From: Trypanosoma brucei
Taxonomy: Eukaryota
DNA: 64,000 nucleotides
Assembly (NCBI GenBank): GCA_000002445.1
Contig: CP000070.1
Span: forward strand, 448,001 to 512,000
Direction of reading: 5' to 3'
Below are positions 17,012-64,000 of the stretch, piece after piece. A program made the position numbers and the translations under genes. Position 1 is the first letter of the stretch, and each line of letters opens with the position of its first letter. A model generated the notes under the pieces. The model saw nothing but the letters and a program-made list of their open reading frames with translations, was not told where the DNA came from and made no database searches.

Positions 17012-17662
17012 ATCAATCCACAATACAAATCATACGTTGAACAGAAACTAAAACATTAAATACTAAATATAAATACATGGGGAAGTGATGTAAACTATAA
17101 GAGGGTTTATGTACGTCAAGGAAGTTTCATTAGAATACAATAATAGTTTTGAATTTTATTAAACAACTTAAAGCTTAACCACATGTGTGGAAACAACAAT
17201 CACTTCACTATAGCATTTGTAGATTAGTGATTGTTACTGAAATAAATGAAAAAAACAAATGAAGTAAATATGGCAAGCACTGCATCCCATATTCTGTATT
17301 CATCACTGTGTGCTGACGCGTTTGAGTAGCTTTGCCCATTGACAGAAAAAAAAATAATAAATAAATGAAATCTCTTCTTGCATCTTGCACAAGTGTATTT
17401 CAACAGAACAAAGACGTAAAAGAAATTTTATGCTTAATATATTTACTCATTTATTTGAAGGAAAGGTACAATGGCCAAAAAACTATAAAGGTGCATGTGA
17501 GTTATACTTCATTGTCAGATAAAGTTAACTTCACAACCCTCCTGAAACACAAAAGGAAAATTAAAAGAATTACAATGAAGAAACAGAAGGAATACAATAT
17601 GTTTTTGCCAACCTCTAACATGTTATATGTAAAAGTGACGAAATGGTCTTCACAATAGGATG

Positions 17663-19735
17663 CTACTCATGACCTCGTTTCCGTGTGAATGCTGGTGCAT
17701 CTCGATATTTTCTCTCTTCATGATACGCTATTATAAGCTCTTTCTGTATCTTGTTATCAAATGTTATTTGATACTGGTCAATACCATCCCAAAATACTTG
17801 TGTTTCCTCAGTTTGTTGCTCAGCATCAGCGGTGTTGTTGTTCACACATCGTTGCCGCGTCTTAATCACACCACCATAAATAGCATTAACATATATCATC
17901 TCCCATGCCATGTTACGAGAAAAGGTATCCCAATCGGAAAAATACCTTGCAATGTTTGTCATAAATTCCTGTAACTCTGAAACACTTGCTTCTTTCCTGT
18001 AATTATCTGTTATTTGAATAAGCACAATAGTCTTTGAGGCAACTCCCAGTTGTGGAAAACCATCCCTCATATCCGCAACCCTTCTAGAGCAATCTTCCAC
18101 AAAGAAAAAGCCATCCACAAAAAGCTTACTCTTTTCCAATGACCTGTAGAGCACTTTGTATTTACAGTTTCCAATTGCATTCTGTCCAGCTTCTGGTAAG
18201 AACTTTTGTTCAAAAATTTGAAACTGTTGTGGGGTCATATCTTTCAGGATGCTACGCTTGTCTTCCGTCTCTCCGAGTCTTCGGAGGTAGTTCAAATGTT
18301 TTGTGACCACACAAAAGACTCTAGGAAAGAGAAGTGAAACCAAAGCCCTTGTTTTAAGCGAGTAGGCTCCGACCTTACCGTATTCCATCATGAATTCATG
18401 GGATGACATACTTTCCGCAACATCTGCAAACAGCGTACAGAGTATCATATTCCCAATGGCAACTGATAGAGGTCTACAGTGGTATGATTCGAGGTTGCCA
18501 TATCTGCTCCTCTCCCGTACAATCTTTATTAACGATTCTGTGAAATGATTACCTTTCCATTCAAAATATTTTCCCATCATCATATCATAGCCATCTCGTC
18601 TATTACAACTGAGACTGCTTAGATACTCTATTACTGCCGCCTCACGACAGCCAGCTCCATTACTGAAAACATAACGAGGCAGCGGCCCCACAAAGTCAAC
18701 ACGTCTCTCCACCAACCTCCACTCATCCTCTAGCTCTTCCTTAACCTTCAAACGAGCATTTTCATCGAGAGTCGTATAGTTGGGAAATAGGGACAGTTTC
18801 TTCCAAGCCACAAACGCCTTAATGTCACGTACGTCATCGCAGTTTAAAATTATCCTTGTTTGTTCCAGGTTCTTCATCCAGTACTTGTAGCGAACTCCAT
18901 CTGGGGGTGCGAGGACAGTCACACCCCAAACATTTCTTGGGATCTCATAAGGCAGAGTTTCCTTACGACTATTAATATCAAAAATAATATGCCCTCTTTT
19001 TTTTAGACGCATTTCTTCAATAACATTAGTGACGTCTTCTCTCTTGTGCAATACAACCCTCCCTTCCTCATTCCCCTTCTTGTTGTATATAAGGTAAGCG
19101 TCCACATCCGTGAAATACACAACGACATCAAGCATTCCTTCATGGAAGTGAAGTAGGGAATGAAGTAAAAATGATCCAACTCCACATGATTTTCCAATAC
19201 CAGATATACCAATGACAATGTGTGTTGGTGGTGTGCTCTCTGTCTTTTCCACCCACCATGCATTTAATTTTCGTTGTATTATATACCACACACGCATCAT
19301 TTCACGACGGACGTAAATATGACCTCCATTTCCCCCATATAAACTAATGAGAGAACATTGAAATCTATCTGAGGGCCAACCCATCTTTGATGTAAGGACA
19401 AAGATCTCCAGGCCAGTGGGTCTCTCCTCAAGTTCCGCATCAACTTCACAATGTTCAGGAGTTATATCCACTTCTTCTTCCGTCCATATGTGTTGTGGTC
19501 TTCCAAAGAATACCTTCATACCGAGTGGCTCTTGATTATAACCTGACATCACATAACTCCACTTCGCATAATACAGAGACTCATATAACTCCTCTTCACG
19601 AGATTTCCTTTTTCCAGTTACCGATGGATTCTGCATCTGTCGTCCACCTTGTTCCTGCACTTCACCTTGTGCACGATTAAACCGTTCGTTAAACACATTC
19701 TGAGTATTTCTCATATTGCCGTTGTTTTGAATCAT
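17663..19735 (-). CDS. array copy 1: RHS-like P-loop NTPase, 690 aa, core type A
   Basis: ATG at 19735-19733 (minus), TAG stop at 17663-17665. Walker A IVIGISGIGKSCG. Q/N/E-rich N-terminus. Family assignment to trypanosome RHS proteins is an inference from size, P-loop and arrayed multigene nature. Confidence 0.6.
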   Translation of the reverse strand: MIQNNGNMRNTQNVFNERFNRAQGEVQEQGGRQMQNPSVTGKRKSREEELYESLYYAKWSYVMSGYNQEPLGMKVFFGRPQHIWTEEEVDITPEHCEVDAELEERPTGLEIFVLTSKMGWPSDRFQCSLISLYGGNGGHIYVRREMMRVWYIIQRKLNAWWVEKTESTPPTHIVIGISGIGKSCGVGSFLLHSLLHFHEGMLDVVVYFTDVDAYLIYNKKGNEEGRVVLHKREDVTNVIEEMRLKKRGHIIFDINSRKETLPYEIPRNVWGVTVLAPPDGVRYKYWMKNLEQTRIILNCDDVRDIKAFVAWKKLSLFPNYTTLDENARLKVKEELEDEWRLVERRVDFVGPLPRYVFSNGAGCREAAVIEYLSSLSCNRRDGYDMMMGKYFEWKGNHFTESLIKIVRERSRYGNLESYHCRPLSVAIGNMILCTLFADVAESMSSHEFMMEYGKVGAYSLKTRALVSLLFPRVFCVVTKHLNYLRRLGETEDKRSILKDMTPQQFQIFEQKFLPEAGQNAIGNCKYKVLYRSLEKSKLFVDGFFFVEDCSRRVADMRDGFPQLGVASKTIVLIQITDNYRKEASVSELQEFMTNIARYFSDWDTFSRNMAWEMIYVNAIYGGVIKTRQRCVNNNTADAEQQTEETQVFWDGIDQYQITFDNKIQKELIIAYHEERKYRDAPAFTRKRGHE

Positions 19736-22268
19736 TCCTATCTCAAAATAATAACTTTAAATAGGTAATATTGTGTTACTTTCTGCACATATATGTGTTT
19801 GTGTGTGTTAAATCAAATAGTAAAATGAAGGGAATGATGTGTACACACTATCAAGCAACACATATATACAGTTCATGAATATCATAAACTAACAGAACAA
19901 ATCATAACCCCTCCTTACAGTTAAACCCCTTAACAACCCCTTGCATATATTGAATAGTGATGTTCAATCAATTAAATATTCTGTATGAAAGCATGAGTAA
20001 TAAGATTTTTAGATATGAGAGATAACAAACACGAAATCCTAAGTGAAGAATACTACTATTTCATATAATATAATATGTATGCATATAGTATAATATGTCA
20101 TACTTTTTGAAATAATAAACAATAGTATTAATAATGAGATAAACAGAATTTACAATAATAGATTATACATTGCACACGTAATAATGAGGACAACGTATGT
20201 CACAAAGGTTCTTAATTATAACATCGAAAGAACATTAACTCAAAGCATCAGCATATACTGCACATACAAACTGTTATTCATTATAACATCTTGGCTCCAT
20301 TTCACAGCATAGACGACAATGTTTGAGTGTAAACCGTAACATACAAAACCCAACACAAATATCTTCTGTACTGTCAAATATTGGGATGGTATCTCATCTC
20401 ATTATTAAACACTTTCAACATTATCTTGTTGTCTCCTTGTTTGGGAACTCTCATCTGTGACACTAAGGAATATGTGAAGATATTAAGATCATTTATTTTT
20501 TTATTTCCTAGTTGCATTTGCAATTGTTCACGTATTCTTTCAGTACACGCAAAAAAATTGAAAGTTTAAGGAAAATTGAATTATGAGAATAAGGAAACAA
20601 AGGATAAATTTTCTGTGAACAATAAAATATTATATAATATCTCAAATCTTCTGCAGTGATTCACCACATGTGGAAAATATATGCAATAGTTACATAACAC
20701 TGACAACACTGAATAAAGGAATATATTCAATATACTCAATATAGTCAATATATTTAATGCAAATATTACATGGAATATAAGAAATGTAAGGAATCAAAGG
20801 AATATAAAAAATAAAATGTAATGGAGAATGATGAAAACTTAAGATACATCTATGTGAGCATAGCGTTGTGTGAGTAGAAATCATGTGCATATTTTATCTT
20901 AATCTTTCCCTATATTGTACTCACTCACTCGTAAAATTTAATCATGGAAATAAAGTTTAGGGAATAGTAAAGTTGTTCTTCCACTCGCATCAAGACACAA
21001 ATACCTGCTTTCTGTCATTGGAAATCATGTGTCTTTATTAAATTGTAGTATCCAATAATGAAAAAGAAGTACTCTATTACTATATCACTCATCATTTCCT
21101 ACATCCCTAAATATATCGCATATTGTCACTATACATATTCTTTTTCTTTTTCATATACCATACAACAATCATATATTATTTACTTCCTTTCTTTAACCTG
21201 ATGTTGTAATGTTCCTTTTGGAAGATACAAATAAATAATTGTACAAATATTAACACAAGAGTAATAATAGAAGAAAAGAATTACCTTAAGGAAACTACAT
21301 GGAACTTCCATTATATAAGATACTACACTTCATATAAGGGGGAAATACGTAACAGTGGTTGTATCTTTTATTTGTCCTCAGTGTATCGGCAATCCTTCAG
21401 TAGACACTGCTTTGCAACTGATTTCTTTTATGGATTAAGTTAGTCAGCAGTGTTGAGACAGGTTCCCCCGCATAAGGAGTGAAGAAACAAAACAATATTC
21501 CTACCTTCTAACCTATTGAACAAGAATGTCTCAAACAATATCATTTGTCCCTATTTATTTCTGCAGATGCAAATGCTATTGATGGGTGAGATACATCTAA
21601 ACAGCAACGGATATAACTATACTCATACAGTGTTTCTTTGATTTCTTCTCGTCACCACAGTTGTGTTGGGTTACAAATATATACACAGCACTCCACTTTG
21701 TGGCTATAAGTCTCTTTAATATTTGAATGAAATCCTGCTTATCGCTACTGCAATATTTCACACTCTGTGAGGGACACTGATATTTGCTTCTTTCGTCCAT
21801 TTCATATTTTGATAGTTATGTAAATATCTTATGTGCAATCCATCTCCTTTCCAAAATAAATAAAAAGAAAGATAAAAGCATAAGCAATTATCGACATAAA
21901 AACTGGAATGAGTCTCTCGGTTACACGTCGCACGCTTCTAACATATAGACACGCTGCATGTAACCTATTTTTGTTGTTTCATGCATGTGTCAGTATGATA
22001 AAATGAAAATAGTCTCATGTTTCTCCTTGTGCTTTTGTATTGCATAAACTACTGGACTCGTCATCTCTTCCACCTATTCATCACACAGGAGTTGTTCACT
22101 TGCTTTACATATAGCATATAGTAAAAATACAAAATATCAAATTATTAAATTAATACTTCACTATAAGCAATAAAGCTTACTTGATTTTGTTTATTTCATT
22201 TATATCTGAGTTGAATTACATATGTTAATGAAATTATTCCACTACTCAAAGATACAAACACTTTATTG

Positions 22269-22307
<39 letters not shown>
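22269..22307. repeat. compound (TA)n(GA)n microsatellite present once per array unit, length-variable between units (e.g. 27848-27900 is about 14 bp longer)
   Basis: Direct read: atatatatatatatatatagagagagagagagagaatgg. Found at the equivalent position in every unit with different repeat counts. Confidence 0.9.
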
Positions 22308-23246
22308 ATGGTTTTGAGACACACCACATATCAGTTCTTCAACATTACATATGTGTAAATCCATATTTACAAAAGGTACAGCTTTTGAATATCTGCATAA
22401 TTATTTGAAGTATTATTATCTAATGAAGTGAACAGTAGATGTCACTAAAATGCAAATAGTAATAATCCTCTGAAAGGCATAAATACTGTTTCACACAATA
22501 CTCTAAAGTAATGCAGCGCTATGCCATGAATACTTCCACAGAAGATACAACAACTAATGTGCGATAGTTAGTCATAATGATGCCTTCCATGTGATGAACT
22601 CTGCAATACAAATCATACGTTGAACAGAAACTAAAACATTAAATACTAAATATAAATGCATGGGGGAGTGATGTAAACTATAAGAGGGTTTATGTACGTC
22701 AAGGAAGTTTCATTAGAATACAATAATAGTTTTGAATTTTATTAAACAACTTAAAGCTTAACCACATGTGTGGAAACAACAATCACTTCACTATAGCATT
22801 TGTAGATTAGTGATTGTTACTGAAATAAATGAAAAAAAACAAATGAAGTAAATACGGCAAGCACTGCATCCCATATTCTGTATTCATCACTGTGTGCTGA
22901 CGCGTTTGAGTAGCTTTGCCCATTGACAGAAAAAAAAATAATAAATAAATGAAATCTCTTCTTGCATCTTGTACAAGTGTATTTCAACAAAACAAAGACG
23001 TAAAAGAAATTTTATGCTTAATATATTTACTCATTTATTTGAAGGAAAGGTACAATAGCCAAAAAACTATAAAGGTGCATGTGAGTTATACTTCATTGTC
23101 AGATAAAGTTAACTTCACAACCCTCCTGAAACACAAAAGGAAAATTAAAAGAATTACAATGAAGAAACAGAAGGAATACAATATGTTTTTGCCAACCTCT
23201 AACATGTTATATGTAAAAGTGACGAAATGGTCTTCACAATAGGATG

Positions 23247-25319
23247 CTACTCATGACCTCGTTTCCGTGTGAATGCTGGTGCATCTCGATATTTTCTCTC
23301 TTCATGATACGCTATTATAAGCTCTTTCTGTATCTTTTTATCAAATGTTATTTGATACTGGTCAATACCATCCCAAAATACTTGTGTTTCCTCAGTTTGT
23401 TGCTCAGCATCAGCGGTGTTGTTGTTCACACATCGTTGCCGCGTCTTAATCACACCACCATAAATAGCATTAACATATATCATCTCCCATGCCATGTTAC
23501 GAGAAAAGGTATCCCAATCGGAAAAATACCTTGCAATGTTTGTCATAAATTCCTGTAACTCTGAAACACTTGCTTCTTTCCTGTAATTATCTGTTATTTG
23601 AATAAGCACAATAGTCTTTGAGGCAACTCCCAGTTGTGGAAAACCATCCCTCATATCCGCAACCCTTCTAGAGCAATCTTCCACAAAGAAAAAGCCATCC
23701 ACAAAAAGCTTACTCTTTTCCAATGACCTGTAGAGCACTTTGTATTTACAGTTTCCAATTGCATTCTGTCCAGCTTCTGGTAAGAACTTTTGTTCAAAAA
23801 TTTGAAACTGTTGTGGGGTCATATCTTTCAGGATGCTACGCTTGTCTTCCGTCTCTCCGAGTCTTCGGAGGTAGTTCAAATGTTTTGTGACCACACAAAA
23901 GACTCTAGGAAAGAGAAGTGAAACCAAAGCCCTTGTTTTAAGCGAGTAGGCTCCGACCTTACCGTATTCCATCATGAATTCATGGGATGACATACTTTCC
24001 GCAACATCTGCAAACAGCGTACAGAGTATCATATTCCCAATGGCAACTGATAGAGGTCTACAGTGGTATGATTCGAGGTTTCCATATCTGCTCCTCTCCC
24101 GTACAATCTTTATTAACGATTCTGTGAAATGATTACCTTTCCATTCAAAATATTTTCCCATCATCATATCATAGCCATCTCGTCTATTACAACTGAGACT
24201 GCTTAGATACCTTATTACCGCCGCCTCACGACAGCAAGCTCCATTACTGAAAACATAACGAGGCAGCGGCCCCACAACGTCAACACGTCTCTCCACCAAC
24301 CTCCACTCATCCTCTAGTTCTTCCTTAACCTTCAAACGAGCATTTTCATCGAGAGTCGTATAGTTGGGAAATACGGACAGTTTCTTCCAAGCCACAAACG
24401 CCTTAATGTCACGTACGTCATCGCAGTTTAAAATTATCCTTGTTTGTTCCAGGTTCTTCATCCAGTACTTGTAGCGAACTCCATCTGGGGGTGCGAGGAC
24501 AGTCACACCCCAAACATTTCTTGGGATCTCATAAGGCAGAGTTTCCTTAGGACTATTAATATCAAAAATAATATGCCCTCTTTTTTTTAGACGCATTTCT
24601 TCAATAACATTAGTGACGTCTTCTCTCTCGTACAATACAACCCTCCCTTCCTCATTCCCCTTCTTGTTGTATATAAGGTAAGCGTCCACATCCGTGAAAT
24701 ACACAACGACATCAAGCATTCCTTCATGGAAGTGAAGTAGGGAATGAAGTAAAAATGATCCAACTCCACATGATTTTCCAATACCAGATATACCAATGAC
24801 AATGTGTGTTGGTGGTGTGCTCTCTGTCTTTTCCACCCACCATGCATTTAATTTTCGTTGTATTATATACCACACACGCATCATTTCACGACGGACGTAA
24901 ATATGACCTCCATTTCCCCCATATAAACTAATGAGAGAACATTGAAATCCGCATGATGGGTTACATATCTTTGATGTAAGGACAAAGATCTCCAGGCCAG
25001 TGGGTCTCTCCTCAAGTTCCGCATCAACTTCACAATGTTCAGGAGTTATATCCACTTCTTCTTCCGTCCATATGTGTTGTGGTCTTCCAAAGAATACCTT
25101 CATACCGAGTGGCTCTTGATTATAACCTGACATCACATAACTCCACTTCGCATAATACAGAGACTCATATAACTCCTCTTCACGAGATTTCCTTTTTCCA
25201 GTTACCGATGGATTCTGCATCTGTCGTCCACCTCGTTCCTGCACTTCACCTTGTGCACGATTAAACCGTTCGTTAAACACATTCTGAGTATTTCTCATAT
25301 TGCCGTTGTTTTGAATCAT
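23247..25319 (-). CDS. array copy 2: RHS-like P-loop NTPase, 690 aa, core type A with a variant micro-patch (SKICNPSCGF in place of SKMGWPSDRF)
   Basis: Colinear with copy 1. The ~22 bp substituted segment at 24949-24970 partly resembles the reverse complement of the copy-1 sequence. Confidence 0.6.
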   Translation of the reverse strand: MIQNNGNMRNTQNVFNERFNRAQGEVQERGGRQMQNPSVTGKRKSREEELYESLYYAKWSYVMSGYNQEPLGMKVFFGRPQHIWTEEEVDITPEHCEVDAELEERPTGLEIFVLTSKICNPSCGFQCSLISLYGGNGGHIYVRREMMRVWYIIQRKLNAWWVEKTESTPPTHIVIGISGIGKSCGVGSFLLHSLLHFHEGMLDVVVYFTDVDAYLIYNKKGNEEGRVVLYEREDVTNVIEEMRLKKRGHIIFDINSPKETLPYEIPRNVWGVTVLAPPDGVRYKYWMKNLEQTRIILNCDDVRDIKAFVAWKKLSVFPNYTTLDENARLKVKEELEDEWRLVERRVDVVGPLPRYVFSNGACCREAAVIRYLSSLSCNRRDGYDMMMGKYFEWKGNHFTESLIKIVRERSRYGNLESYHCRPLSVAIGNMILCTLFADVAESMSSHEFMMEYGKVGAYSLKTRALVSLLFPRVFCVVTKHLNYLRRLGETEDKRSILKDMTPQQFQIFEQKFLPEAGQNAIGNCKYKVLYRSLEKSKLFVDGFFFVEDCSRRVADMRDGFPQLGVASKTIVLIQITDNYRKEASVSELQEFMTNIARYFSDWDTFSRNMAWEMIYVNAIYGGVIKTRQRCVNNNTADAEQQTEETQVFWDGIDQYQITFDKKIQKELIIAYHEERKYRDAPAFTRKRGHE

Positions 25320-27853
25320 TCCTATCTCAAAATAATAACTTTAAATAGGTAATATTGTGTTACTTTCTGAACATATATGTGTTTGTGTGTGTTAAATCAA
25401 ATAGTAAAATGAAGGGAATGATGTGTACACACTATCAAGCAACACATATATACAGTTCATGAATATCATAAACTAACAGAACAAATCATAACCCCTCCTT
25501 ACAGTTAAACCCCTTAACAACCCCTTGCATATATTGAATAGTGATGTTCAATCAATTAAATATTCTGTATGAAAGCATGAGTAATAAGATTTTTAGATAT
25601 GAGAGATAACAAACACGAAATCCTAAGTGAAGAATACTACTATTTCATATAATATAATATGTATGCATATAGTATAATATGTCATACTTTTTGAAATAAT
25701 AAACAATAGTATTAATAATGAGATAAACAGAATTTACAATAATAGATTATACATTGCACACGTAATAATGAGGACAACGTATGTCACAAAGGTTCTTAAT
25801 TATAACATCGAAAGAACATTAACTCAAAGCATCAGCATATACTGCACATACAAACTGTTATTCATTATAACATCTTGGCTCCATTTCACAGCATAGACGA
25901 CAATGTTTGAGTGTAAACCGTAACATACAAAACCCAACACAAATATCTTCTGTACTGTCAAATATTGGGATGGTATCTCATCTCATTATTAAACACTTTC
26001 AACATTATCTTGTTGTCTCCTTGTTTGGGAACTCTCATCTGTGACACTAAGGAATATGTGAAGATATTAAGATCATTTATTTTTTTATTTCCTAGTTGCA
26101 TTTGCAATTGTTCACGTATTCTTTCAGTACACGCAAAAAAATTGAAAGTTTAAGGAAAATTGAATTATGAGAATAAGGAAACAAAGGATAAATTTTCTGT
26201 GAACAATAAAATATTATATAATATCTCAAATCTTCTGCAGTGATTCACCACATGTGGAAAATATATGCAATAGTTACATAACACTGACAACACTGAATAA
26301 AGGAATATATTCAATATACTCAATATAGTCAATATATTTAATGCAAATATTACATGGAATATAAGAAGTGTAAGGAATCAAAGAAATATAAAAAATAAAA
26401 TGTAATGGAGAATGATGGAAACTTAAGATACATCTATGTGAGCATAGCGTTGTGTGAGTAGAAATCATGTGCATATTTTATCTTAATCTTTCCCTATATT
26501 GTACTCACTCACTCGTAAAATTTAATCATGGAAATAAAGTTTAGGGAATAGTAAAGTTGTTCTTCCACTCGCATCAAGACACAAATACCTGCTTTCTGTC
26601 ATTGGAAATCATGTGTCTTTATTAAATTGTAGTATCCAATAATGAAAAAGAAGTACTCTATTACTATATCACTCATCATTTCCTACATCCCTAAATATAT
26701 CGCATATTGTCACTATACATATTCTTTTTCTTTTTCATATACCATACAACAATCATATATTATTTACTTCCTTTCTTTAACCTGATGTTGTAATGTTCCT
26801 TTTGGAAGATACAAATAAATAATTGTACAAATATTAACACAAGAGTAATAATAGAAGAAAAGAATTACCTTAAGGAAACTACATGGAACTTCCATTATAT
26901 AAGATACTACACTTCATATAAGGGGGAAATACGTAACAGTGGTTGTATCTTTTATTTGTCCTCAGTGTATCGGCAATCCTTCAGTAGACACTGCTTTGCA
27001 ACTGATTTCTTTTATGGATTAAGTTAGTCAGCAGTGTTGAGACAGGTTCCCCCGCATGAGGAGTGAAGGGACAAAACAATATTCCTACCTTCTAACCTAT
27101 TGAACAAGAATGTCTCAAACAATATCATTTGTCCCTATTTATTTCTGCAGATGCAAATGCTATTGATGGGTGAGATACATCTAAACAGCAACGGATATAA
27201 CTATACTCATACAGTGTTTCTTTGATTTCTTCTCGTCACCACAGTTGTGTTGGGTTACAAATATATACACAGCACTCCACTTTGTGGCTATAAGTCTCTT
27301 TAATATTTGAATGAAATCCTGCTTATCGCTACTGCAATATTTCACACTCTGTGAGGGACACTGATATTTGCTTCTTTCGTCCATTTCATATTTTGATAGT
27401 TATGTAAATATCTTATGTGCAATCCATCTCCTTTCCAAAATAAATAAAAAGAAAGATAAAAGCATAAGCAATTATCGACATAAAAACTGGAATGAGTCTC
27501 TCGGTTACACGTCGCACGCTTCTAACATATAGACATGCTGCATGTAACCTATTTTTGTTGTTTCATTCATGTGTCAGTATGATAAAATGAAAATAGTCTC
27601 ATGTTTCTCCTTGTGCTTTTGTATTGCATAAACTACTGGACTCGTCATCTCTTCCACCTATTCATCACACAGGAGTTGTTCACTTGCTTTACATATAGCA
27701 TATAGTAAAAATACAAAATATCACATTATTAAATTAATACTTCACTATAAGCAATAAAGCTTACTTGATTTTGTTTATTTCATTTATATCTGAGTTGAAT
27801 TACATATGTTAATTGAAATTATTCCACTACTCAAAGATACAAACACTTTATTG

Positions 27854-27900
<47 letters not shown>

Positions 27901-28849
27901 ATGGTTTTGAGACACACCACATATCAGTTCTTCAACATTACATATGTGTAAATCCATATTTACAAAAGGTACAGCTTTTGAATATCTGCATAATTATTTG
28001 AAGTATTATTATCTAATGAAGTGAACAGTAGATGTCCCTGAAATGCAAATAGTAATAATCCTCTGAAAGGCATAAATACTGTTTCACACAATACTCTAAA
28101 GTAATGCAGCGCTATGCCATGAATACTTCCACAGAAGATACAACAACTAATGTGCGATAGTTAGTCATAATGATGCCTTCCATGTGATGAACTCTGCAAT
28201 ACAAATCATACGTTAACAGAAACTAAAACATTAAATACTAAATATAAATACATGGGGGAGTGATGTAAACTATAAGAGGGGTTATGCACGTCAAAAAAGT
28301 TTCATTAGAATACAATAATAGTTTTGAATTTTATTAAACAACTTAAAGCTTAACCACATGTGTGGAAACAACAATCACTTCACTATAGCATTTGTAGATT
28401 AGTGATTGTTACTGAAATAAATGAAAAAAACAAATGAAGTAAATACGGCAAGCACTGCATCCCATATTCTGTATTCATCACTGTGTGCTGACGCGTTTGA
28501 GTAGCTTTGCCCATTGACAGAAAAAAAAATAATAAATAAATGAAATCTCTTCTTGCATCTTGTACAAGTGTATTTCAACAGAACAAAGACGTAAAAGAAA
28601 TTTTATGCTTAATATATTTACTCATTTATTTGAAGGAAAGGTACAATGGCCAAAAAACTATAAAGGTGCATGTGAGTTATACTTCATTGTCAGATAAAGT
28701 TAACTTCACAACCCTCCTGAAACACAAAAGGAAAATTAAAAGAATTACAATGAAGAAACAGAAGGAATACAATATGTTTTTTCCAACCTCTAACATGTTA
28801 TATGTAAAAGTGACGAAATGGTCTTCACAATAGGATGCTACTCATGACC

Positions 28850-47688: not shown

Positions 47689-47746
47689 TCCTATCTCAAA
47701 ATAATAACTTTAAATAGGTAATATTGTGTTACTTTCTGCACATATG

Positions 47747-47781
<35 letters not shown>

Positions 47782-50242: not shown

Positions 50243-50277
<35 letters not shown>

Positions 50278-51214
50278 ATGGTTTTGAGACACACCACATA
50301 TCAGTTCTTCAACATTACATATGTGTAAATCCATATTTACAAAAGGTACAGCTTTTGAATATCTGCATAATTATTTGAAGTATTATTATCTAATGAAATG
50401 AACAGTAGATGTCACTGAAATGCAAATAGTAATAATCCTCTGAAAGGCATAAATACTGTTTCATACAATACTCTAAAGTACTGCAGCGCTGTGCCATGAA
50501 TACTTCCACAGAATATACAACAACTAATGTGCGATAGTTAGTCATAATGATGCCTTCCATGTGATGAACTCTGCAATACAAATCATACGTTGAACAGAAA
50601 CTAAAACATTAAATACTAAATATAAATGCATGGGGGAGTGATGTAAACTATAAGAGGGGTTATGTACGTCAAGGAAGTTTCATTAGAATACAATAATAGT
50701 TTTGAATTTTATTAAACAACTTAAAGCTTAACCACATGTGTGGAAACAACAATCACTTCACTATAGCATTTGTAGATTAGTGATTGTTACTGAAATAAAT
50801 GAAAAAAACAAATGAAGTAAATACAGCAAGCACTGCATCCCATATTCTGTATTCATCACTGTGTGCTGACGCGTTTGAGTAGCTTTGCCCATTGACAGAA
50901 AAAAAAATAATAAATAAATGAAATCTCTTCTTGCATCTTGTACAAGTGTATTTCAACAAAACAAAGACGTAAAAGAAATTTTATGCTTAATATATTTACT
51001 CATTTATTTGAAGGAAAGGTACAATAGCCAAAAACTATAAAGGTGCATGTGAGTTATACTTCATTGTCAGATAAAGTTAACTTCACAACCCTCCTGAAAC
51101 ACAAAAGGAAAATTAAAAGAATTACAATGAAGAAACAGAAGGAATACAATATGTTTTTTCCAACCTCTAACATGTTATATGTAAAAGTGACGAAATGGTC
51201 TTCACAATAGGATG

Positions 51215-53287
51215 CTACTCATGACCTCGTTTCCGTGTGAATGCTGGTGCATCTCGATATTTTCTCTCTTCATGATACGCTATTATAAGCTCTTTCTGTA
51301 TCTTGTTATCAAATGTTATTTGATACTGGTCAATACCATCCCAAAATACTTGTGTTTCCTCAGTTTGTTGCTCAGCATCAGCGGTGTTGTTGTTCACACA
51401 TCGTTGCCGCGTCTTAATCACACCACCATAAATAGCATTAACATATATCATCTCCCATGCCATGTTACGAGAAAAGGTATCCCAATCGGAAAAATACCTT
51501 GCAATGTTTGTCATAAATTCCTGTAACTCTGAAACACTTGCTTCTTTCCTGTAATTATCTGTTATTTGAATAAGCACAATAGTCTTTGAGGCAACTCCCA
51601 GTTGTCGAAAACCATCCCGCATATCCGCAACCCTTCTAGAGCAATCTTCCACAAAGAAAAAGCCATCCACAAAAAGCTTACTCTCTTCAAATGACCTGTA
51701 GAGCACCTTGTATTTACAGTTTCCAATTGCATTCTGTCCAGTTTTTGGTAAGAACTTTTGTTCAAAAATTTGAAACTGTTGTGGGGTCATATCTTTCAGG
51801 ATGCTACGCTTGTCTTCCGTCTCTCCGAGTCTTCGGAGGTAGTTCAAATGTTTTGTGACCACACAAAAGACTCTAGGAAAGAGAAGTGAAACCAAAGCCC
51901 TTGTTTCAAGCGAGTAGGCTCCGACCTTACCGTATACGCTTTCACTATGTTTCTCAACCATCAGTGTTGCAACAGTTGAAAACAGCGTACAGAGTATCAT
52001 ATTCCCAATGGCAACTGATAGAGGTCTACAGTGGTATGATTCGAGGTTGCCATATCCGCTCCCCTCCCGTACAATCTTCACTAAACTGTGAACCACTTTT
52101 TCACTTTTCCACGTAAAATATTTTTCCAGAATCGTTTCATACTCTTCTTTCTTCTCATTTTCTAGGCTTCTTAGGTAATCACTGATATCCTGCAGCCGGT
52201 TGGTGTAACTTTGCTTGCTGAAAACATAACGAGGCAGCGGCCCCACAACGTCAACACGTCTCTCCACTAACCTCCACTCATCCTCTAGCTCTTCCTTAAC
52301 CTTCGCACGAGCATTTTCATCGAGAGTCGTATAGTTGGGAAATAGGGACAGTTTCTTCCAGGCCACAAACGCCTTAATGTCACGTACGTCATCGCAGTTT
52401 AAAATCACATTCCAACTTAAATAGTCCTTCTCCCAATGTTCATAATAGTGTGTATCCGGAGTGTTGAGTGTAGTTATTCCCCACCCAAGATATTGGGTCT
52501 CATAAGGCGGAGTCTCATCAGGTCCATCAGTATCAAAAATAATATGCCCTCTTTTTTTAAAACGCATTTCTTCAATAACATTAGTGACGTCTTTTCTCTT
52601 GTACAATACAACCCTCCCTTCCTCATTCCCCTTCTTGTTGTATATAAGGTAAGCTTTGGCATCCGTGAAATACACAACGACATCAAGCATTCCTTCATGG
52701 AAGTGAAGTAGGGAATGAAGTAAAAATGATCCAACTCCACATGATTTTCCAGTCCCTGGAATACCAATGACAATGTGTGTTGGTGGTCTCTCTGTCTTTT
52801 GCACCCACCATGCATTTAATTTTTGTTGTATTATATACCACACACGCATCATTTCACGACGGATGTAGACATTATTGTCCATTATACCACTTTCATCATT
52901 GATACCTAATTGAAACGTAGCTGATGGCCAACCCATCTTTGATGTAAGGACAAAGATCTCCAGGCCAGTGGGTCTCTCCTCAAGTTCCGCATCAACTTCA
53001 CAATGTTCAGGAGTTATATCAACTTCTTCTTCCGTCCATATGTGTTGTGGTCTTCCAAAGAATACCTTCATACCGAGTGGCTCTTGATTATAACCTGACA
53101 TCACATAACTCCACTTCGCATAATACAGAGACTCATATAACTCCTCTTCACGAGATTTCCTTTTTCCAGTTACCGATGGATTCTGCATCTGTCGTCCACC
53201 TCGTTCCTGCACTTCACCTTGTGCACGATTAAACCGTTCGTTAAACACATTCTGAGTATTTCTCATATTGCCGTTGTTTTGAATCAT
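51215..53287 (-). CDS. array copy 7: RHS-like P-loop NTPase, 690 aa, core type B, with a 1-codon deletion (QKTERPPTH)
   Basis: Same type-B core as copy 6, with a 3-bp in-frame deletion near 52790. Confidence 0.6.
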   Translation of the reverse strand: MIQNNGNMRNTQNVFNERFNRAQGEVQERGGRQMQNPSVTGKRKSREEELYESLYYAKWSYVMSGYNQEPLGMKVFFGRPQHIWTEEEVDITPEHCEVDAELEERPTGLEIFVLTSKMGWPSATFQLGINDESGIMDNNVYIRREMMRVWYIIQQKLNAWWVQKTERPPTHIVIGIPGTGKSCGVGSFLLHSLLHFHEGMLDVVVYFTDAKAYLIYNKKGNEEGRVVLYKRKDVTNVIEEMRFKKRGHIIFDTDGPDETPPYETQYLGWGITTLNTPDTHYYEHWEKDYLSWNVILNCDDVRDIKAFVAWKKLSLFPNYTTLDENARAKVKEELEDEWRLVERRVDVVGPLPRYVFSKQSYTNRLQDISDYLRSLENEKKEEYETILEKYFTWKSEKVVHSLVKIVREGSGYGNLESYHCRPLSVAIGNMILCTLFSTVATLMVEKHSESVYGKVGAYSLETRALVSLLFPRVFCVVTKHLNYLRRLGETEDKRSILKDMTPQQFQIFEQKFLPKTGQNAIGNCKYKVLYRSFEESKLFVDGFFFVEDCSRRVADMRDGFRQLGVASKTIVLIQITDNYRKEASVSELQEFMTNIARYFSDWDTFSRNMAWEMIYVNAIYGGVIKTRQRCVNNNTADAEQQTEETQVFWDGIDQYQITFDNKIQKELIIAYHEERKYRDAPAFTRKRGHE

Positions 53288-55858: not shown

Positions 55859-56808
55859 ATGGTTTTGAGACACACCACATATCAGTTCTTCAACATTACA
55901 TATGTGTAAATCCATATTTACAAAAGGTACAGCTTTTGAATATCTGCATAATTATTTGAAGTATTATTATCTAATGAAGTGAACAGTAGATGTCACTAAA
56001 ATGCAAATAGTAATAATCCTCTGAAAGGCATAAATACTGTTTCATACAATACTCTAAAGTAATGCAGCGCTATGCCATGAATACTTCCACAGAAGATACA
56101 ACAACTAATGTGCGATAGTTAGTCATAATGATGCCTTCCATGTGATGAACTCTGCAATACAAATCATACGTTGAACAGAAACTAAAACATTAAATACTAA
56201 ATATAAATGCATGGGGGAGTGATGTAAACTATAAGAGGGGTTATGTACGTCAAGGAAGTTTCATTAGAATACAATAATAGTTTTGAATTTTATTAAACAA
56301 CTTAAAGCTTAACCACATGTGTGGAAACAACAATCACTTCACTATAGCATTTGTAGATTAGTGATTGTTACTGAAATAAATGAAAAAAAACAAATGAAGT
56401 AAATACAGCAAGCACTGCATCCCATATTCTGTATTCATCACTGTGTGCTGACGCGTTTGAGTAGCTTTGCCCATTGACAGAAAAAAAATAATAAATAAAT
56501 GAAATCTCTTCTTGCATCTTGCACAAGTGTATTTCAACAAAACAAAGACGTAAAAGAAATTTTATGCTTAATATATTTACTCATTTATTTGAAGGAAAGG
56601 TACAATAGCCAAAAAACTATAAAGGTGCATGTGAGTTATACTTCATTGTCAGATAAAGTTAACTTCACAACCCTCCTGAAACACAAAAGGAAAATTAAAA
56701 GAATTACAATGAAGAAACAGAAGAAATACAATATGTTTTTTCCAACCTCTAACATGTTATATGTAAAAGTGACGAAATGGTCTTCACAATAGGATGCTAC
56801 TCATGACC

Positions 56809-58872
56809 TCATTTCCGTGTGAATGCTGGTGCATCTCGATATTTTCTCTCTTCATGATACGCTATTATAAGCTCTTTCTGTATCTTGTTATCAAATGTTA
56901 TTTGATACTGGTCAATACCATCCCAAAATACTTGTGTTTCCTCAGTTTGTTGCTCAGCATCAGCGGTGTTGTTGTTCACACATCGTTGCCGCGTCTTAAT
57001 CACACCACCATAAATAGCATTAACATATATCATCTCCCATGCCATGTTACGAGAAAAGGTATCCCAATCGGAAAAATACCTTGCAATGTTTGTCATAAAT
57101 TCCTGTAACTCTGAAACACTTGCTTCTTTCCTGTAATTATCTGTTATTTGAATAAGCACAATAGTCTTTGAGGCAACTCCCAGTTGTGGAAAACCATCCC
57201 TCATATCCGCAACCCTTCTAGAGCAATCTTCCACAAAGAAAAAGCCATCCACAAAAAGCTTACTCTCCTCCAATGACCTGTAGAGCACCTTGTATTTACA
57301 GTTTCCAATTGCATTCTGTCCAGTTTTTGGTAAGAACTTTTGTTCAAAAATTTGAAACTGTTGTGGGGTCATATCTTTCAGGATGCTACGCTTGTCTTCC
57401 GTCTCTCCGAGTCTTCGGAGGTAGTTCAAATGTTTTGTGACCACACAAAAGACTCTAGGAAAGAGAAGTGAAACCAAAGCCCTTGTTTCAAGCGAGTAGG
57501 CTCCGACCTTACCGTATACGCTTTCACTATGTTTCTCAACCATCAGTGTTGCAACAGTTGAAAACAGCGTACAGAGTATCATATTCCCAATGGGAACTGA
57601 TAGAGGTCTACAGTGGTATGATTCGAGGTCGTCATATCTGCCCCCCTCCCGTACAATCTTCACTAAACTGTGAACCACTTTTTCACTTTTCCACGTAAAA
57701 TATTTTTCCAGAATCGTTTCATACTCTTCTTTCTTCTCATTTTCTAGGCTTCTTAGGTAATCACTGATATCCTGCAGCCGGTTGGTGTAACTTTGCTTGC
57801 TGAAAACATAACGAGGCAGCGGCCCCACAACGTCAACACGTCTCTCCACCAACCTCCACTCATCCTCTAGCTCTTCCTTAACCTTCGCACGAGCATTTTC
57901 ATCGAGAGTCGTATAGTTGGGAAATAGGGACAGTTTCTTCCAGGCCACAAACGCCTTAATGTCACGTACGTCATCGCAGTTTAAAATCACATTCCAACTT
58001 AAATAGTCCTTCTCCCAATGTTCATAATAGTGTGTATCCGGAGTGTTGAGTGTAGTTATTCCCCACCCAAGATATTGGGTCTCATAAGGCGGAGTCTCAT
58101 CAGGTCCATCAGTATCAAAAATAATATGCCCTCTTTTTTTCAAACGCATTTCTTTAATAACATTAGTGACGTCTTTTCTCTTGTACAATACAACCCTCCC
58201 TTCCTCATTCCCCTTCTTGTTGTATATAAGGTAAGCTTTGGCATCCGTGAAATACACAACGACATCAAGCATTCCTTCATGGAAGTGAAGTAGGGAATGA
58301 AGTAAAAATGATCCAACTCCACATGATTTTCCAGTCCCTGGAATACCAATGATAATGTGTGTTGGTGGTGTGCTCTCTGTCTTTTGCACCCACCATTCTT
58401 TTAATTTTTGTTGTATTATATACCACACACGCATCATTTCACGACGGATGTAGACATTATTGTCCATTATACCACTTTCATCATTGATACCTAATTGAAA
58501 CGTAGCTGATGGCCAACCCATCTTTGATGTAAGGACAAAGATCTCCAGGCCAGTGGGTCTCTCCTCAAGTTCCGCATCAACTTCACAATGTTCAGGAGTT
58601 ATATCCACTTCTTCTTCCGTCCATATGTGTTGTGGTCTTCCAAAGAATACCTTCATACCGAGTGGCTCTTGATTATAACCTGACATCACATAACTCCACT
58701 TCGCATAATACAGAGACTCATATAACTCCTCTTCACGAGATTTCCTTTTTCCAGTTACCGATGGATTCTGCATCTGTCGTCCACCTCGTTCCTGCACTTC
58801 ACCTTGTGCACGATTAAACCGTTCGTTAAACACATTCTGAGTATTTCTCATATTGCCGTTGTTTTGAATCAT
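56809..58872 (-). CDS. array copy 8: RHS-like P-loop NTPase, 687 aa, core type B, early-stop C-terminus (ends AFTRK)
   Basis: Type-B core, plus the same CGA to TGA change as copy 3 (tca at 56809-56811). Confidence 0.6.
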   Translation of the reverse strand: MIQNNGNMRNTQNVFNERFNRAQGEVQERGGRQMQNPSVTGKRKSREEELYESLYYAKWSYVMSGYNQEPLGMKVFFGRPQHIWTEEEVDITPEHCEVDAELEERPTGLEIFVLTSKMGWPSATFQLGINDESGIMDNNVYIRREMMRVWYIIQQKLKEWWVQKTESTPPTHIIIGIPGTGKSCGVGSFLLHSLLHFHEGMLDVVVYFTDAKAYLIYNKKGNEEGRVVLYKRKDVTNVIKEMRLKKRGHIIFDTDGPDETPPYETQYLGWGITTLNTPDTHYYEHWEKDYLSWNVILNCDDVRDIKAFVAWKKLSLFPNYTTLDENARAKVKEELEDEWRLVERRVDVVGPLPRYVFSKQSYTNRLQDISDYLRSLENEKKEEYETILEKYFTWKSEKVVHSLVKIVREGGRYDDLESYHCRPLSVPIGNMILCTLFSTVATLMVEKHSESVYGKVGAYSLETRALVSLLFPRVFCVVTKHLNYLRRLGETEDKRSILKDMTPQQFQIFEQKFLPKTGQNAIGNCKYKVLYRSLEESKLFVDGFFFVEDCSRRVADMRDGFPQLGVASKTIVLIQITDNYRKEASVSELQEFMTNIARYFSDWDTFSRNMAWEMIYVNAIYGGVIKTRQRCVNNNTADAEQQTEETQVFWDGIDQYQITFDNKIQKELIIAYHEERKYRDAPAFTRK

Positions 58873-61404
58873 TCCTATCTCAAAATAATAACTTTAAATA
58901 GGTAATATTGTGTTACTTTCTGAACATATATGTGTTTGTGTGTGTTAAATCAAATAGTAAAATGAAGGGAATGATGTGTACACACTATCAAGCAACACAT
59001 ATATACAGTTCATGAATATCATAAACTAACAGAACAAATTATAACCCCTCCTTACAGTTAAACCCCTTAACAACCCCTTGCATATATTGAATAGTGATGT
59101 TCAATCAATTAAATATTCTGTATGAAAGCATGAGTAATAAGATTTTTAGATATGAGAGATAACAAACACGAAATCCTAAGTGAAGAATACTACTATTTCA
59201 TATAATATAATATGTATGCATATAGTATAATATGTCATACTTTTTGAAATAATAAACAATAGTATTAATAATGAGATAAACAGAATTTACAATAATAGAT
59301 TATACATTGCACACGTAATAATGAGGACAACGTATGTCACAAAGGTTCTTAATTATAACATCGAAAGAACATTAACTCAAAGCATCAGCAAACATGCAGA
59401 TACAAACTGTTATTCATTATAACATCTTGGCTCCATTTCACAGCATAGACGACAATGTTTGAGTGTAAACCGTAACATACAAAACCCAACACAAATATCT
59501 TCTGTACTGTCAAATATTGGGATGGTATCTCATCTCATTATTAAACACTTTCAACATTATCTTGTTGTCTCCTTGTTTGGGAACTCTCATCTTTGACACT
59601 AAGGAATATGTGAAGATATTAAGATCATTTATTTTTTTATTTCCTAGTTGCATTTGCAATTGTTCACGTATTCTTTCAGTACACGCAAAAAAATTGAAAG
59701 TTTAAGGAAAATTGAATTATGAGAATAAGGAAACAAAGGATAAATTTTCTGTGAACAATAAAATATTATATAATATCTTAAATCTTCTGCAGTGATTCAC
59801 CACATGTGGAAAATATATGCAATAGTTACATAACACTGACAACACTGAATAAAGGAATATATTCAATATACTCAATATAGTCAATATATTTAATGCAAAT
59901 ATTACATGGAATATAAGAAGTGTAAGGAATCAAAGGAATATAAAAAATAAAATGTAATGGAGAATGATGGAAACTTAAGATACATCTATGTGAGCATAGC
60001 GTTGTGTGAGTAGAAATCATGTGCATATTTTATCTTAATCTTTCCCTATATTGTACTCACTCACTCGTAAAACTTAATCATGGAAATAAAGTTTAGGGAA
60101 TAGTAAAGTTGTTCTTCCACTCGCGTCAAGACACAAATACATGCTTTCTGTCATTGGAAATCATGTGTCTTTATTAAATTGTAGTATCCAATAATGAAAA
60201 AGAAGTACTCTATTACTATATCACTCATCATTTCCTACATCCCTAAATATATCGCATATTGTCACTATACATATTCTTTTTCTTTTTCATATACCATACA
60301 ACAATCATATATTATTTACTTCCTTTCTTTAAACTGATGTCGTAATGTTCCTTTTGGAAGATACAAATAAATAATTGAACAAATATTAACACAAGAGTAA
60401 TGATAGAAGAAAAGAATTACCTTAAGGAAACTACATGGAACTTCCATTATATAAGATACTACACTTCATATAAGGGGGAAATACGTAACAGTGGTTGTAT
60501 CTTTTATTTGTCCTCAGTGTATCGGCAATCCTTCAGTAGACACTGCTTTGCAACTGATTTCTTTTATGGATTAAGTTAGTCAGCAGTGTTGAGACAGGTT
60601 CCCCCGCATGAGGAGTGAAGGGACAAAACAATATTCCTACCTTCTAACCTATTGAACAAGAATGTCTCAAACAATATCATTTGTCCCTATTTATTTCTGC
60701 AGATGCAAATGCTATTGATGGGTGAGATACATCTAAACAGCAACGGATATAACTATACTCATACAGTGTTTCTTTGATTTCTTCTCGTCACCACAGTTGT
60801 GTTGGGTTACAAATATATACACAGCACTCCACTTTGTGGCTATAAGTCTCTTTAATATTTGAATGAAATCCTGCTTATCGCTACTGCAATATTTCACACT
60901 CTGTGAGGGACACTGATATTTGCTTCTTTCGTCCATTTCATATTTTGATAGTTATGTAAATATCTTATGTGCAATCCATCTCCTTTCCAAAATAAATAAA
61001 AAGAAAGATAAAAGCATAAGCAATTATCGACATAAAAACTGGAATGAGTCTCTCGGTTACACGTCGCACGCTTCTAACATATAGACACGCTGCATGTAAC
61101 CTATTTTTGTAGTTTCATGCATGTGTCAGTATGATAAAATGAAAATAGTCTCATGTTTCTCCTTGTGCTTTTGTATTGCATAAACTACTGGACTCGTCAT
61201 CTCTTCCACCTATTCATCACACAGGAGTTATTCACTTGCTTTACATGTAGCATATAGTAAAAATACAAAATATCAAATTATTAAATTAATACTTCACTAT
61301 AAGCAATAAAGCTTACTTGATTTTGTTTATTTCATTTATATCTGAGTTGAATTACATATGTTAATGAAATTATTCCACTACTCAAAGATACAAACACTTT
61401 ATTG

Positions 61405-61437
<33 letters not shown>

Positions 61438-62387
61438 ATGGTTTTGAGACACACCACATATCAGTTCTTCAACATTACATATGTGTAAATCCATATTTAC
61501 AAAAGGTACAGCTTTTGAATATCTGCATAATTATTTGAAGTATTATTATCTAATGAAGTGAACAGTAGATGTCACTGAAATGCAAATAGTAATAATCCTC
61601 TGAAAGGCATAAATACTGTTTCATACAATACTCTAAAGTACTGCAGCGCTGTGCCATGAATACTTCCACAGAATATACAACAACTAATGTGCGATAGTTA
61701 GTCATAATGATGCCTTCCATGTGATGAACTCTGCAATACAAATCATACGTTGAACAGAAACTAAAACATTAAATACTAAATATAAATGCATGGGGGAGTG
61801 ATGTAAACTATAAGAGGGGTTATGTACGTCAAGGAAGTTTCATTAGAATACAATAATAGTTTTGAATTTTATTAGACAACTTAAAGCTTAACCACATGTG
61901 TGGAAACAACAATCACTTCACTATAGCATTTGTAGATTAGTGATTGTTACTGAAATAAATGAAAAAAAACAAATGAAGTAAATACGGCAAGCACTGCATC
62001 CCATATTCTGTATTCATCACTGTGTGCTGACGCGTTTGAGTAGCTTTGCCCATTGACAGAAAAAAAAATAATAAATAAATGAAATCTCTTCTTGCATCTT
62101 GTACAAGTGTATTTCAACAAAACAAAGACGTAAAAGAAATTTTATGCTTAATATATTTACTCATTTATTTGAAGGAAAGGTACAATAGCCAAAAACTATA
62201 AAGGTGCATGTGAGTTATACTTCATTGTCAGATAAAGTTAACTTCACAACCCTCCTGAAACACAAAAGGAAAATTAAAAGAATTACAATGAAGAAACAGA
62301 AGGAATACAATATGTTTTTTCCAACCTCTAACATGTTATATGTAAAAGTGACGAAATGGTCTTCACAATATGATGCTACTCATGACC

Positions 62388-64000
62388 TCATTTCCGTGTG
62401 AATGCTGGTGCATCTCGATATTTTCTCTCTTCATGATACGCTATTATAAGCTCTTTCTGTATCTTTTTATCAAATGTTATTTGATACTGGTCAATACCAT
62501 CCCAAAATACTTGTGTTTCCTCAGTTTGTTGCTCAGCATCAGCGGTGTTGTTGTTCACACATCGTTGCCGCGTCTTAATCACACCACCATAAATAGCATT
62601 AACATATATCATCTCCCATGCCATGTTACGAGAAAAGGTATCCCAATCGGAAAAATACCTTGCAATGTTTGTCATAAATTCCTGTAACTCTGAAACACTT
62701 GCTTCTTTCCTGTAATTATCTGTTATTTGAATAAGCACAATAGTCTTTGAGGCAACTCCCAGTTGTGGAAAACCATCCCTCATATCCGCAACCCTTCTAG
62801 AGCAATCTTCCACAAAGAAAAAGCCACCAACAAGGGGCTTACTCTCTTCAAATGACCTGTAGAGCACCTTGTATTCACAGTTTCCAATTGCATTCTGTCC
62901 AGCTTCTGGTAAGAACTTTTGTTCAACAAGTTGAAACTGTTGTGGGGTCATATCTTTCAGGATGCTACGCTTGTCTTCCGTCTCTCCGAGTCTTCGGAGG
63001 TAGTTCAAATGTTTTGTGACCACACAAAAGACTCTAGGAAAGAGAAGTGAAACCAAAGCCCTTGTTTTAAGCGAGTAGGCTCCGACCTTACCGTATCCCA
63101 TCATGAATTCAAGGGATGACATACTTTTCGCAACAGTTGCAAACAGCGTACAGAGTATCATATTCCCAATGGCAACTGATAGAGGTCTACAGTGGTATGA
63201 TTCGAGGTTGCCATATCTGCTCCTCTCCCGTACAATCTTTATTAACGGTTGTGTGAAATCATTACCTTTCCATTCAAAATATTTTCCCATCATCATATCA
63301 TAGCCATCTCGTCTATTACAACTGAGACGGCTTAGATACCTTATTACCTCCAACTCACGACAGTTACCTCGATTACCGAAAACATAACGAGGCAGCGGCC
63401 CCACTACGTCAACACGTCTCTCCACCAACCTCCACTCATCCTCTAGCTCTTCCTTAACCTTCGCACGAGCATTTTCATCGAGAGTCGTATAGTTGGGAAA
63501 TAGGGACAGTTTCTTCCAAGCCACAAACGCCTTAATGTCACGTACGTCATCGCAGTTTAAAATTATCCTTGTTTGTTCCAGGTTCTTCATCCAGTACTTG
63601 TAGCGAACTCCATCTGGGGGTGCGAGGACAGTCACACCCCAAACATTTCTTGGGATCTCATAAGGCAGAGTTTCCTTAGGACTATTAATATCAAAAATAA
63701 TATGCCCTCTTTTTTTCAAACGCATTTCTTCAATAACATTAGTGACGTCTTTTCTCTTGTACAATACAACCCTCCCTTCCTCATTCCCCTTCTTGTTGTA
63801 TATAAGGTAAGCTTTGGCATCCGTGAAATACACAACGACATCAAGCATTCCTTCATGGAAGTGAAGTAGGGAATGAAGTAAAAATGATCCAACTCCACAT
63901 GATTTTCCAATACCAGATATACCAATGACAATGTGTGTTGGTGGTCTCTCTGTCTTTTGCACCCACCATGCATTTAATTTTTGTTGTATTATATACCACA
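62388..64000 (-). CDS. array copy 9: RHS-like P-loop NTPase, 3' part only (5' end beyond the window), a third more divergent mosaic core with early-stop C-terminus
   Basis: The reading frame stays open to position 64000; the track's M at 63962 is a GTG. It combines A-type GISGIGKS and DINSPKETLPYEIPRNVWGVTVLAPP with B-type ENARAKVKEELE and with unique tracts (FGNRGNCRELEVIRYLSRL; FATVAKSMSSLEFMMGYG; QQFQLVEQKF; EESKPLVGGFFF). Confidence 0.55.
   Translation of the reverse strand, partial: WYIIQQKLNAWWVQKTERPPTHIVIGISGIGKSCGVGSFLLHSLLHFHEGMLDVVVYFTDAKAYLIYNKKGNEEGRVVLYKRKDVTNVIEEMRLKKRGHIIFDINSPKETLPYEIPRNVWGVTVLAPPDGVRYKYWMKNLEQTRIILNCDDVRDIKAFVAWKKLSLFPNYTTLDENARAKVKEELEDEWRLVERRVDVVGPLPRYVFGNRGNCRELEVIRYLSRLSCNRRDGYDMMMGKYFEWKGNDFTQPLIKIVRERSRYGNLESYHCRPLSVAIGNMILCTLFATVAKSMSSLEFMMGYGKVGAYSLKTRALVSLLFPRVFCVVTKHLNYLRRLGETEDKRSILKDMTPQQFQLVEQKFLPEAGQNAIGNCEYKVLYRSFEESKPLVGGFFFVEDCSRRVADMRDGFPQLGVASKTIVLIQITDNYRKEASVSELQEFMTNIARYFSDWDTFSRNMAWEMIYVNAIYGGVIKTRQRCVNNNTADAEQQTEETQVFWDGIDQYQITFDKKIQKELIIAYHEERKYRDAPAFTRK

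Follow-up and report, generated by a model that had tools for sequence, protein, structure and literature searches.

A mosaic of hypervariable cassettes within the tandemly arrayed RHS7 genes of Trypanosoma brucei chromosome 7

Introduction

Retrotransposon hot spot (RHS) genes of Trypanosoma brucei fall into several subfamilies, and about 60% of them are reported in the literature to be disrupted. Three subfamilies, RHS2, RHS4 and RHS6, have been described as associated with chromatin and RNA polymerase II (Pol II) and as required for transcription and mRNA export. RHS7 is the only subfamily expressed solely in the tsetse salivary-gland stages, and it lies outside the metacyclic transcriptome (Florini et al., PMC6393297; Naguleswaran et al., PMC8483307). 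Its mRNA has been reported to rise upon depletion of REG9.1 and to be destabilised upon depletion of DRBD18. The genes Tb927.7.2010 and Tb927.7.2030 carry the name RHS7 in the literature, and RHS7 is array 55 in the survey of T. brucei tandem arrays by Jackson (2007, PMC1855330), where its divergence is given only as array-wide values for synonymous (dS, 0.066) and nonsynonymous (dN, 0.065) substitution. Here we describe a 64,000-nucleotide stretch of T. brucei DNA (the window; GCA_000002445.1, contig CP000070.1, positions 448,001 to 512,000), in which an earlier note, made from the letters alone, had pointed out a tandem array of RHS-like genes.

We are highly confident that this locus is the RHS7 tandem gene array on chromosome 7 of T. 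b. brucei TREU927, an amplified gene whose product is likely a nuclear, stage-specific NTPase. The array itself is known: the reference annotation includes it, and it has been published since 2007. Within it, spacers and gene ends are homogenised to at least 99% identity, and four short cassettes in the coding sequence keep two to four ancient alleles that span subspecies.

Results

Nine RHS7 gene copies lie head to tail. Comparison of unit 1 with the window by BLASTN showed a head-to-tail array that begins at 17,022, repeats every 5,576-5,611 bp and is made up of a 641-bp partial unit, eight complete units and a 1,625-bp partial unit that reaches 64,000. Each of the other units gave one collinear match to unit 1, at 95.3-99.1% identity, and the full units start at 17,663; 23,247; 28,838; 34,414; 40,002; 45,613; 51,215 and 56,797. 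The array is real and far beyond chance. Tandem Repeats Finder did not detect it because the longest period handled by that program is 500 bp, shorter than the 5.6-kb unit. In the list of open reading frames (ORFs), nine minus-strand ORFs of 524-693 amino acids (aa) recur at intervals of about 5.6 kb between 17,663 and the window end. Each unit consists of a coding sequence (CDS) of 2,061-2,082 bp and a spacer of about 3.5 kb, so that guanine-cytosine (GC) content alternates between roughly 40% in the CDS and 30% in the spacer; GC skew is negative across the whole array. The locus is thus a trypanosomatid tandem array in the sense of Jackson (2007), with same-strand head-to-tail duplicates of gene and intergenic region in one predicted polycistron. 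Its components are as follows.

17,022-17,662, minus strand: partial unit 0, 641 bp of spacer 3' of gene 1, 98.9% identical to positions 4,942-5,584 of unit 1
17,663-23,246, minus strand: unit 1, type A; RHS7 CDS at 17,663-19,735 (690 aa) and 3,511 bp of AT-rich spacer
23,247-28,837, minus strand: unit 2, type A; CDS at 23,247-25,319, protein equal to XP_845820.1 of TREU927
28,838-34,413, minus strand: unit 3, type A; CDS at 28,850-30,910 (686 aa)
34,414-40,001, minus strand: unit 4, type A with variant cassette 1b; CDS at 34,414-36,495 (693 aa)
40,002-45,612, minus strand: unit 5, type A, pseudogene; CDS frame at 40,002-42,083 with a stop at codon 84
45,613-51,214, minus strand: unit 6, type B, Walker A motif GIPGTGKS; CDS at 45,613-47,688, protein equal to XP_845823.1
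51,215-56,796, minus strand: unit 7, type B; CDS at 51,215-53,287 (690 aa)
56,797-62,375, minus strand: unit 8, type B; CDS at 56,809-58,872 (687 aa)
62,376-64,000, minus strand: unit 9, of a third cassette type and truncated at the window end; the protein part present is contained unchanged in XP_845826.1 (688 aa)

Of the nine copies of the gene, seven are intact. A single TGG-to-stop change at W84 (41,832-41,834) makes unit 5 a pseudogene, the rest of its frame being intact, and unit 9 runs off the window end. These results refine the earlier note, which had proposed at least nine units of 5.6 kb beginning at 17,012, each carrying a single 690-aa gene on the minus strand. The period and the nine gene copies held, with eight units complete, and the layout recurs from unit to unit apart from the stop in unit 5 and the truncation of unit 9. 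The left edge proved to be sharp and to lie about 10 bp further in, at 17,022 by base-by-base comparison (the BLAST match starts at 17,021). The array does begin inside a spacer, as had been supposed, since the partial unit 0 is spacer sequence. Eight RHS7 protein entries of TREU927 (XP_845819-XP_845826) appear against the nine gene copies, which fits unit 5 having no entry. This run of accessions also suggests that in the reference the array stops with unit 9 or shortly beyond it.

The array genes belong to the RHS7 subfamily. The Pfam search that the earlier note had proposed matched the RHSP family (PF07999) over profile positions 1-311/312, with E-values of 3e-53 to 6e-59 and scores of 181.7-200.5 bits (cut-off 25), and the RHS_N family (PF20445) with E-values of 1e-31 to 2e-33 and scores of 110-115 bits (cut-off 21). 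No domain besides these two was found in the Pfam scan, and no other P-loop family rose above threshold. The best database matches were T. brucei proteins annotated as 'retrotransposon hot spot (RHS) protein', and all 22-23 matches came from T. brucei subspecies or T. vivax; among these the family does not extend beyond the genus Trypanosoma. A second homology search, based on profiles, added one fragment to the same 22 proteins, and its alignments stay shallow. The proteins of units 2 and 6 are 100% identical to XP_845820.1 and XP_845823.1 of T. b. brucei TREU927, respectively, and the fragment encoded by unit 9 occurs unchanged within XP_845826.1. This identity makes the locus the published RHS7 array. 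The proteins also have the distinct C-terminal region and the chromosome 7 tandem arrangement that mark the subfamily (identity to other RHS subfamilies is at most 51% overall and 39% in the C-terminal region), with an indirect link from accessions to gene IDs. The family call, including both of the Walker A variants that had been noticed, GISGIGKS and GIPGTGKS, was therefore borne out, and the locus serves as a clean positive control in which an RHS gene array was recognised correctly from raw sequence by a reader without tools.

An orthologous array is present in T. b. gambiense. In the DAL972 assembly (FN554970.1, 457877-479952) an RHS7 array with a 5.6-kb period has A-like and B-like units interleaved. 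A 100-N assembly gap occurs there at 17,212-17,311 of the retrieved stretch, together with truncated gene models, and accessions in the range CBH12225-CBH12254 hint at an array that is larger or more fragmented than that of TREU927.

Fixed differences between two types of unit are confined to the central coding sequence and form four cassettes in the protein. Units 1-5 form one type (A) and units 6-8 another (B), with 98.6-99.3% identity within types and about 95.8% between them. All 184 fixed differences between A and B lie in the central CDS (alignment columns 3,900-5,000), whereas the 3.5-kb spacer and both terminal parts of the CDS have none; under a uniform distribution the probability of such clustering is about 1e-79. 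At the protein level these differences resolve into four discrete cassettes separated by invariant sequence, at residues 118-142, 254-295, 358-407 and 438-452, and the cassettes coincide with stretches that also vary between RHS subfamilies. In unit 1 they are located as follows.

19,310-19,384, minus strand: hypervariable cassette 1, residues 118-142, with at least three alleles per half
18,851-18,976, minus strand: hypervariable cassette 2, residues 254-295, beginning right after the Walker B-like GHIIFD
18,515-18,664, minus strand: hypervariable cassette 3a, residues 358-407, within the helical region that follows the NTPase core
18,380-18,424, minus strand: hypervariable cassette 3b, residues 438-452

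Substitution rates between A and B differ sharply along the gene. In cassette 2, dS is 0.84-0.88 and dN 0.57 (dN/dS 0.65-0.69), and over cassettes 1 and 2 dN/dS is 0.65-0.8. The cassette-3 region has a dS of 0.25 and a dN/dS of 1.3. In the N- and C-terminal parts dS is 0-0.016, at which dN/dS is not meaningful. Import of the type B cassettes from another RHS subfamily was considered and rejected, as both A and B alleles are 21-34% identical to those of the other subfamilies; type B of cassette 3a is somewhat nearer to them than type A (31% versus 21%).

A haplotype table covering the window copies and the annotated RHS7 proteins of T. b. gambiense and T. equiperdum showed two to four alleles per cassette in many combinations. 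Because the same alleles occur across T. b. gambiense and T. equiperdum, they predate the subspecies split and have been reassorted by recombination or gene conversion, and the rest of the unit evolves in concert. Sequence divergence blocks homologous recombination, and the distinctness of the cassettes could be kept either by such a block or by selection. No description of the mosaic was found in the papers searched, so this small detail is possibly undescribed. The cassettes are the parts of the protein of first interest for studies of RHS7 function.

The predicted RHS7 protein combines an NTPase with a weakly nuclease-like C-terminal domain. The Walker A motif occupies residues 176-183 in all copies, in the N-terminal half of the protein, and reads GISGIGKS or GIPGTGKS.

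19,187-19,210, minus strand: Walker A motif GISGIGKS, unit 1 residues 176-183, from the sequence

RHS7 lacks the N-terminal DUF7578 extension of the RHS subfamilies of about 850 aa. In the structure model, residues 1-142 have a predicted local distance difference test score (pLDDT) below 50, too low to assign a fold to this N-terminal stretch. The C-terminal domain (residues 456-690; 17,666-18,370, minus strand) is modelled with the topology alpha-beta-beta-beta-alpha-beta. Its best long structural matches are nucleases of the restriction endonuclease (REase) fold, many of them from defence systems, and the similarity is weak; the matches include N.BspD6I, R.BspD6I, FokI, HamA, LmuA, MspJI, McrC, Cap4 and the nuclease domain of Avs3. 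A sequence search against solved structures gave no match.

Conserved residues of this domain are D541, E547, Q574, T576, W611 and E612. In place of the D...(D/E)xK arrangement, RHS7 has the non-canonical D541...Q574-x-T576, which makes catalytic activity of the domain doubtful as judged from its sequence. The residue after the conserved T is K in RHS proteins of about 850 aa and in RHS4 (QVTK/HVTK), versus D in RHS7 (QITD); the latter suggests a further departure from a nuclease-like active site.

The retrotransposon hot spot is unoccupied, and the unit 1 spacer holds no second gene. According to PMC7563717, the insertion hot spot of the retroelements RIME and ingi lies five codons downstream of the Walker A motif. 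The coding context of this site, GKSCGVGSFLLHSLLHF, is conserved between RHS7 and other RHS subfamilies. Because unit lengths are constant at 5,576-5,611 bp, a RIME/ingi insertion is absent from all copies: by unit length and by the ORF scan of the unit 1 spacer, the hot spot is unoccupied in 9/9 copies. Unit lengths vary through indels at three places in the spacer (alignment columns of about 900-1,000, 2,100 and 3,400-3,500). In the spacer of unit 1, the sole spacer scanned, ORFs do not exceed 104 aa and microsatellites are the only internal repeats, and a second gene or a retroelement within the unit was rejected on these grounds. Scans for tRNA genes and Rfam families across the strand-switch region described below and two units gave no match, so the spacer hides no RNA gene cluster. 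An (AT)n(AG)n microsatellite is present in every spacer (22,269-22,307 in unit 1).

The array adjoins a convergent strand-switch region. Between the array and the last plus-strand gene lies a 2-kb stretch of unique, gene-poor sequence, and the sign of the GC skew changes at about 15-16 kb. The plus-strand gene block at 1-15 kb has a GC content of 45-55% and positive skew, and the genes identified there by Pfam, which converge on the array, encode a FYVE protein, a protein kinase, a glycine dehydrogenase, a leucine-rich-repeat (LRR) protein and a GDA1/CD39 nucleoside phosphatase. This setting agrees with the expectation that RHS genes lie near strand-switch regions and LRR protein genes.

14,994-17,021, no strand: convergent strand-switch region, from the nucleoside phosphatase gene to the array edge
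13,662-14,993, plus strand: GDA1/CD39 nucleoside phosphatase gene (Pfam), the last plus-strand gene before the array
10,637-12,385, plus strand: LRR protein gene, 5 kb from the array, listed with a TTG start, so that the real start codon is probably an internal ATG

Nothing else in the window matches the left flank (15,000-17,020), and ORFs in the strand-switch region are only short. One of 157 aa at 16,036-16,509 (plus strand) is probably spurious. The region also contains a T-rich tract at 15,048-15,085 (Tandem Repeats Finder, period 1, 38 copies, 70% matches) and a run of nine G near 15,775. Two further plus-strand ORFs, at 1,782-2,882 (366 aa) and 4,593-5,459 (288 aa), had no Pfam match and presumably encode trypanosome-specific hypothetical proteins.

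Discussion

Given the chromatin and Pol II roles of RHS2, RHS4 and RHS6, RHS7 is most likely a stage-specific nuclear NTPase of that kind, associated with chromatin or Pol II. The array would be read by Pol II as part of one polycistron, with transcription coming in from past the window end and terminating in the strand-switch region at 15-17 kb, and the mRNA of each copy would be released by trans-splicing and polyadenylation. Because the genes would have no promoters of their own, tandem amplification may be the means by which dosage is raised, with copy number setting the dosage. The long AT-rich spacers would supply untranslated regions (UTRs) that control mRNA stability, so that restriction to the salivary gland may be post-transcriptional and act through these long UTRs. 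Unequal crossing-over or gene conversion keeps the spacers near-identical, together with the coding parts at the N- and C-terminal ends, and the four cassettes of the central domain persist as two to four old, highly diverged alleles that are reassorted among copies.

A different role would follow if RHS7 were a Crinkler-RHS-type conflict or effector protein, in which an NTPase regulates a nuclease-like domain, and not a housekeeping-type transcription factor. Such a protein could serve in the tsetse salivary gland, acting either on the fly or among trypanosomes at about the time of mating, and diversifying selection would in that case act on its hypervariable cassettes as specificity surfaces. 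The salivary gland is the site of trypanosome meiosis and gamete formation, and the expression of RHS7 is limited to the stages that live there. The resemblance of the C-terminal model to REase-fold nucleases, many of them defence proteins, points the same way, as do the dN/dS of 1.3 in the cassette-3 region and the retention of old alleles across subspecies. The grouping of RHS proteins with Crinkler effectors, under an architecture of NTPase, helix-turn-helix (HTH) and REase domains, is also on record (Zhang et al. 2016, as summarised in PMC5289972). The catalytic (D/E)xK motif is not intact, however, and the structural similarity is weak; the Pfam scan gives only RHS_N and RHSP, dN/dS in cassettes 1 and 2 is 0.65-0.8, and the related RHS2, RHS4 and RHS6 are nuclear Pol II and chromatin factors. 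We regard an effector role in place of a transcriptional one as quite improbable.

It is improbable, too, that RHS7 goes beyond a dosage-amplified transcription cofactor to constitute a Crinkler-type, NTPase/nuclease-like system that diversifies and whose use is confined to the salivary gland. If this were so, the four cassettes would be specificity determinants, with ancient alleles held by selection and shuffled by gene conversion, and the array would amount to a miniature combinatorial repertoire comparable to mosaic formation in the variant surface glycoproteins.

That the array is an assembly artefact, a single- or low-copy locus mis-expanded, is very unlikely: near-identical 5.6-kb repeats are hard to assemble and the DAL972 counterpart contains a 100-N gap, but all eight full units differ from one another through private substitutions and distinct cassette combinations, one copy has a private nonsense mutation, the same 5.6-kb array is found in the independent DAL972 assembly, multiple distinct RHS7 copies occur in three independent assemblies (TREU927, DAL972 and T. 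equiperdum), and the locus is listed as a tandem array by Jackson (2007, PMC1855330).

Comparison with known systems

The nearest described system is the RHS7 array of TREU927 chromosome 7 itself (Tb927.7.2010, Tb927.7.2030; XP_845819-XP_845826), which is the same locus without sequence difference. The other subfamilies, RHS1-RHS6, have in common with RHS7 the RHS_N and RHSP P-loop domains, a GKSxGVGSFLLHSLLH stretch and the C-terminal motifs VDGFFFVE and WEMIY, at 30-51% identity, and RHS4 likewise lacks the N-terminal DUF7578 extension. RHS7 differs from them in its setting and its use. It forms a regular tandem array in the chromosome core beside housekeeping genes, whereas RHS1-RHS6 are reported to cluster at subtelomeres, and according to the literature it is unlike them in being expressed only in the salivary glands. 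The copies studied here have no RIME/ingi interruption, whereas disruption is reported for about 60% of RHS genes.

The P-loop NTPase module that characterises the Crinkler-RHS-type (CR) proteins is present in RHS7, where, as in that class, a helical region and then an alpha/beta domain at the C-terminus come after it. The C-terminal model agrees with the NTPase, HTH and REase architecture and falls short of proof of it. RHS7 departs from the CR proteins in the weakness of its REase similarity and in its non-canonical D...QxT motif. At the low confidence of the N-terminal model, a ubiquitin-like or helical header domain of the CR kind is not discernible. Mosaic genes arising by gene conversion and recombination have also been reported for the RHS family of T. 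cruzi (Bernardo et al. 2020, PMC7563717). As described there, mosaicism in T. cruzi takes place among RHS groups of a much larger family, whereas in RHS7 it operates inside one homogenised tandem array and draws on a few discrete cassette alleles.

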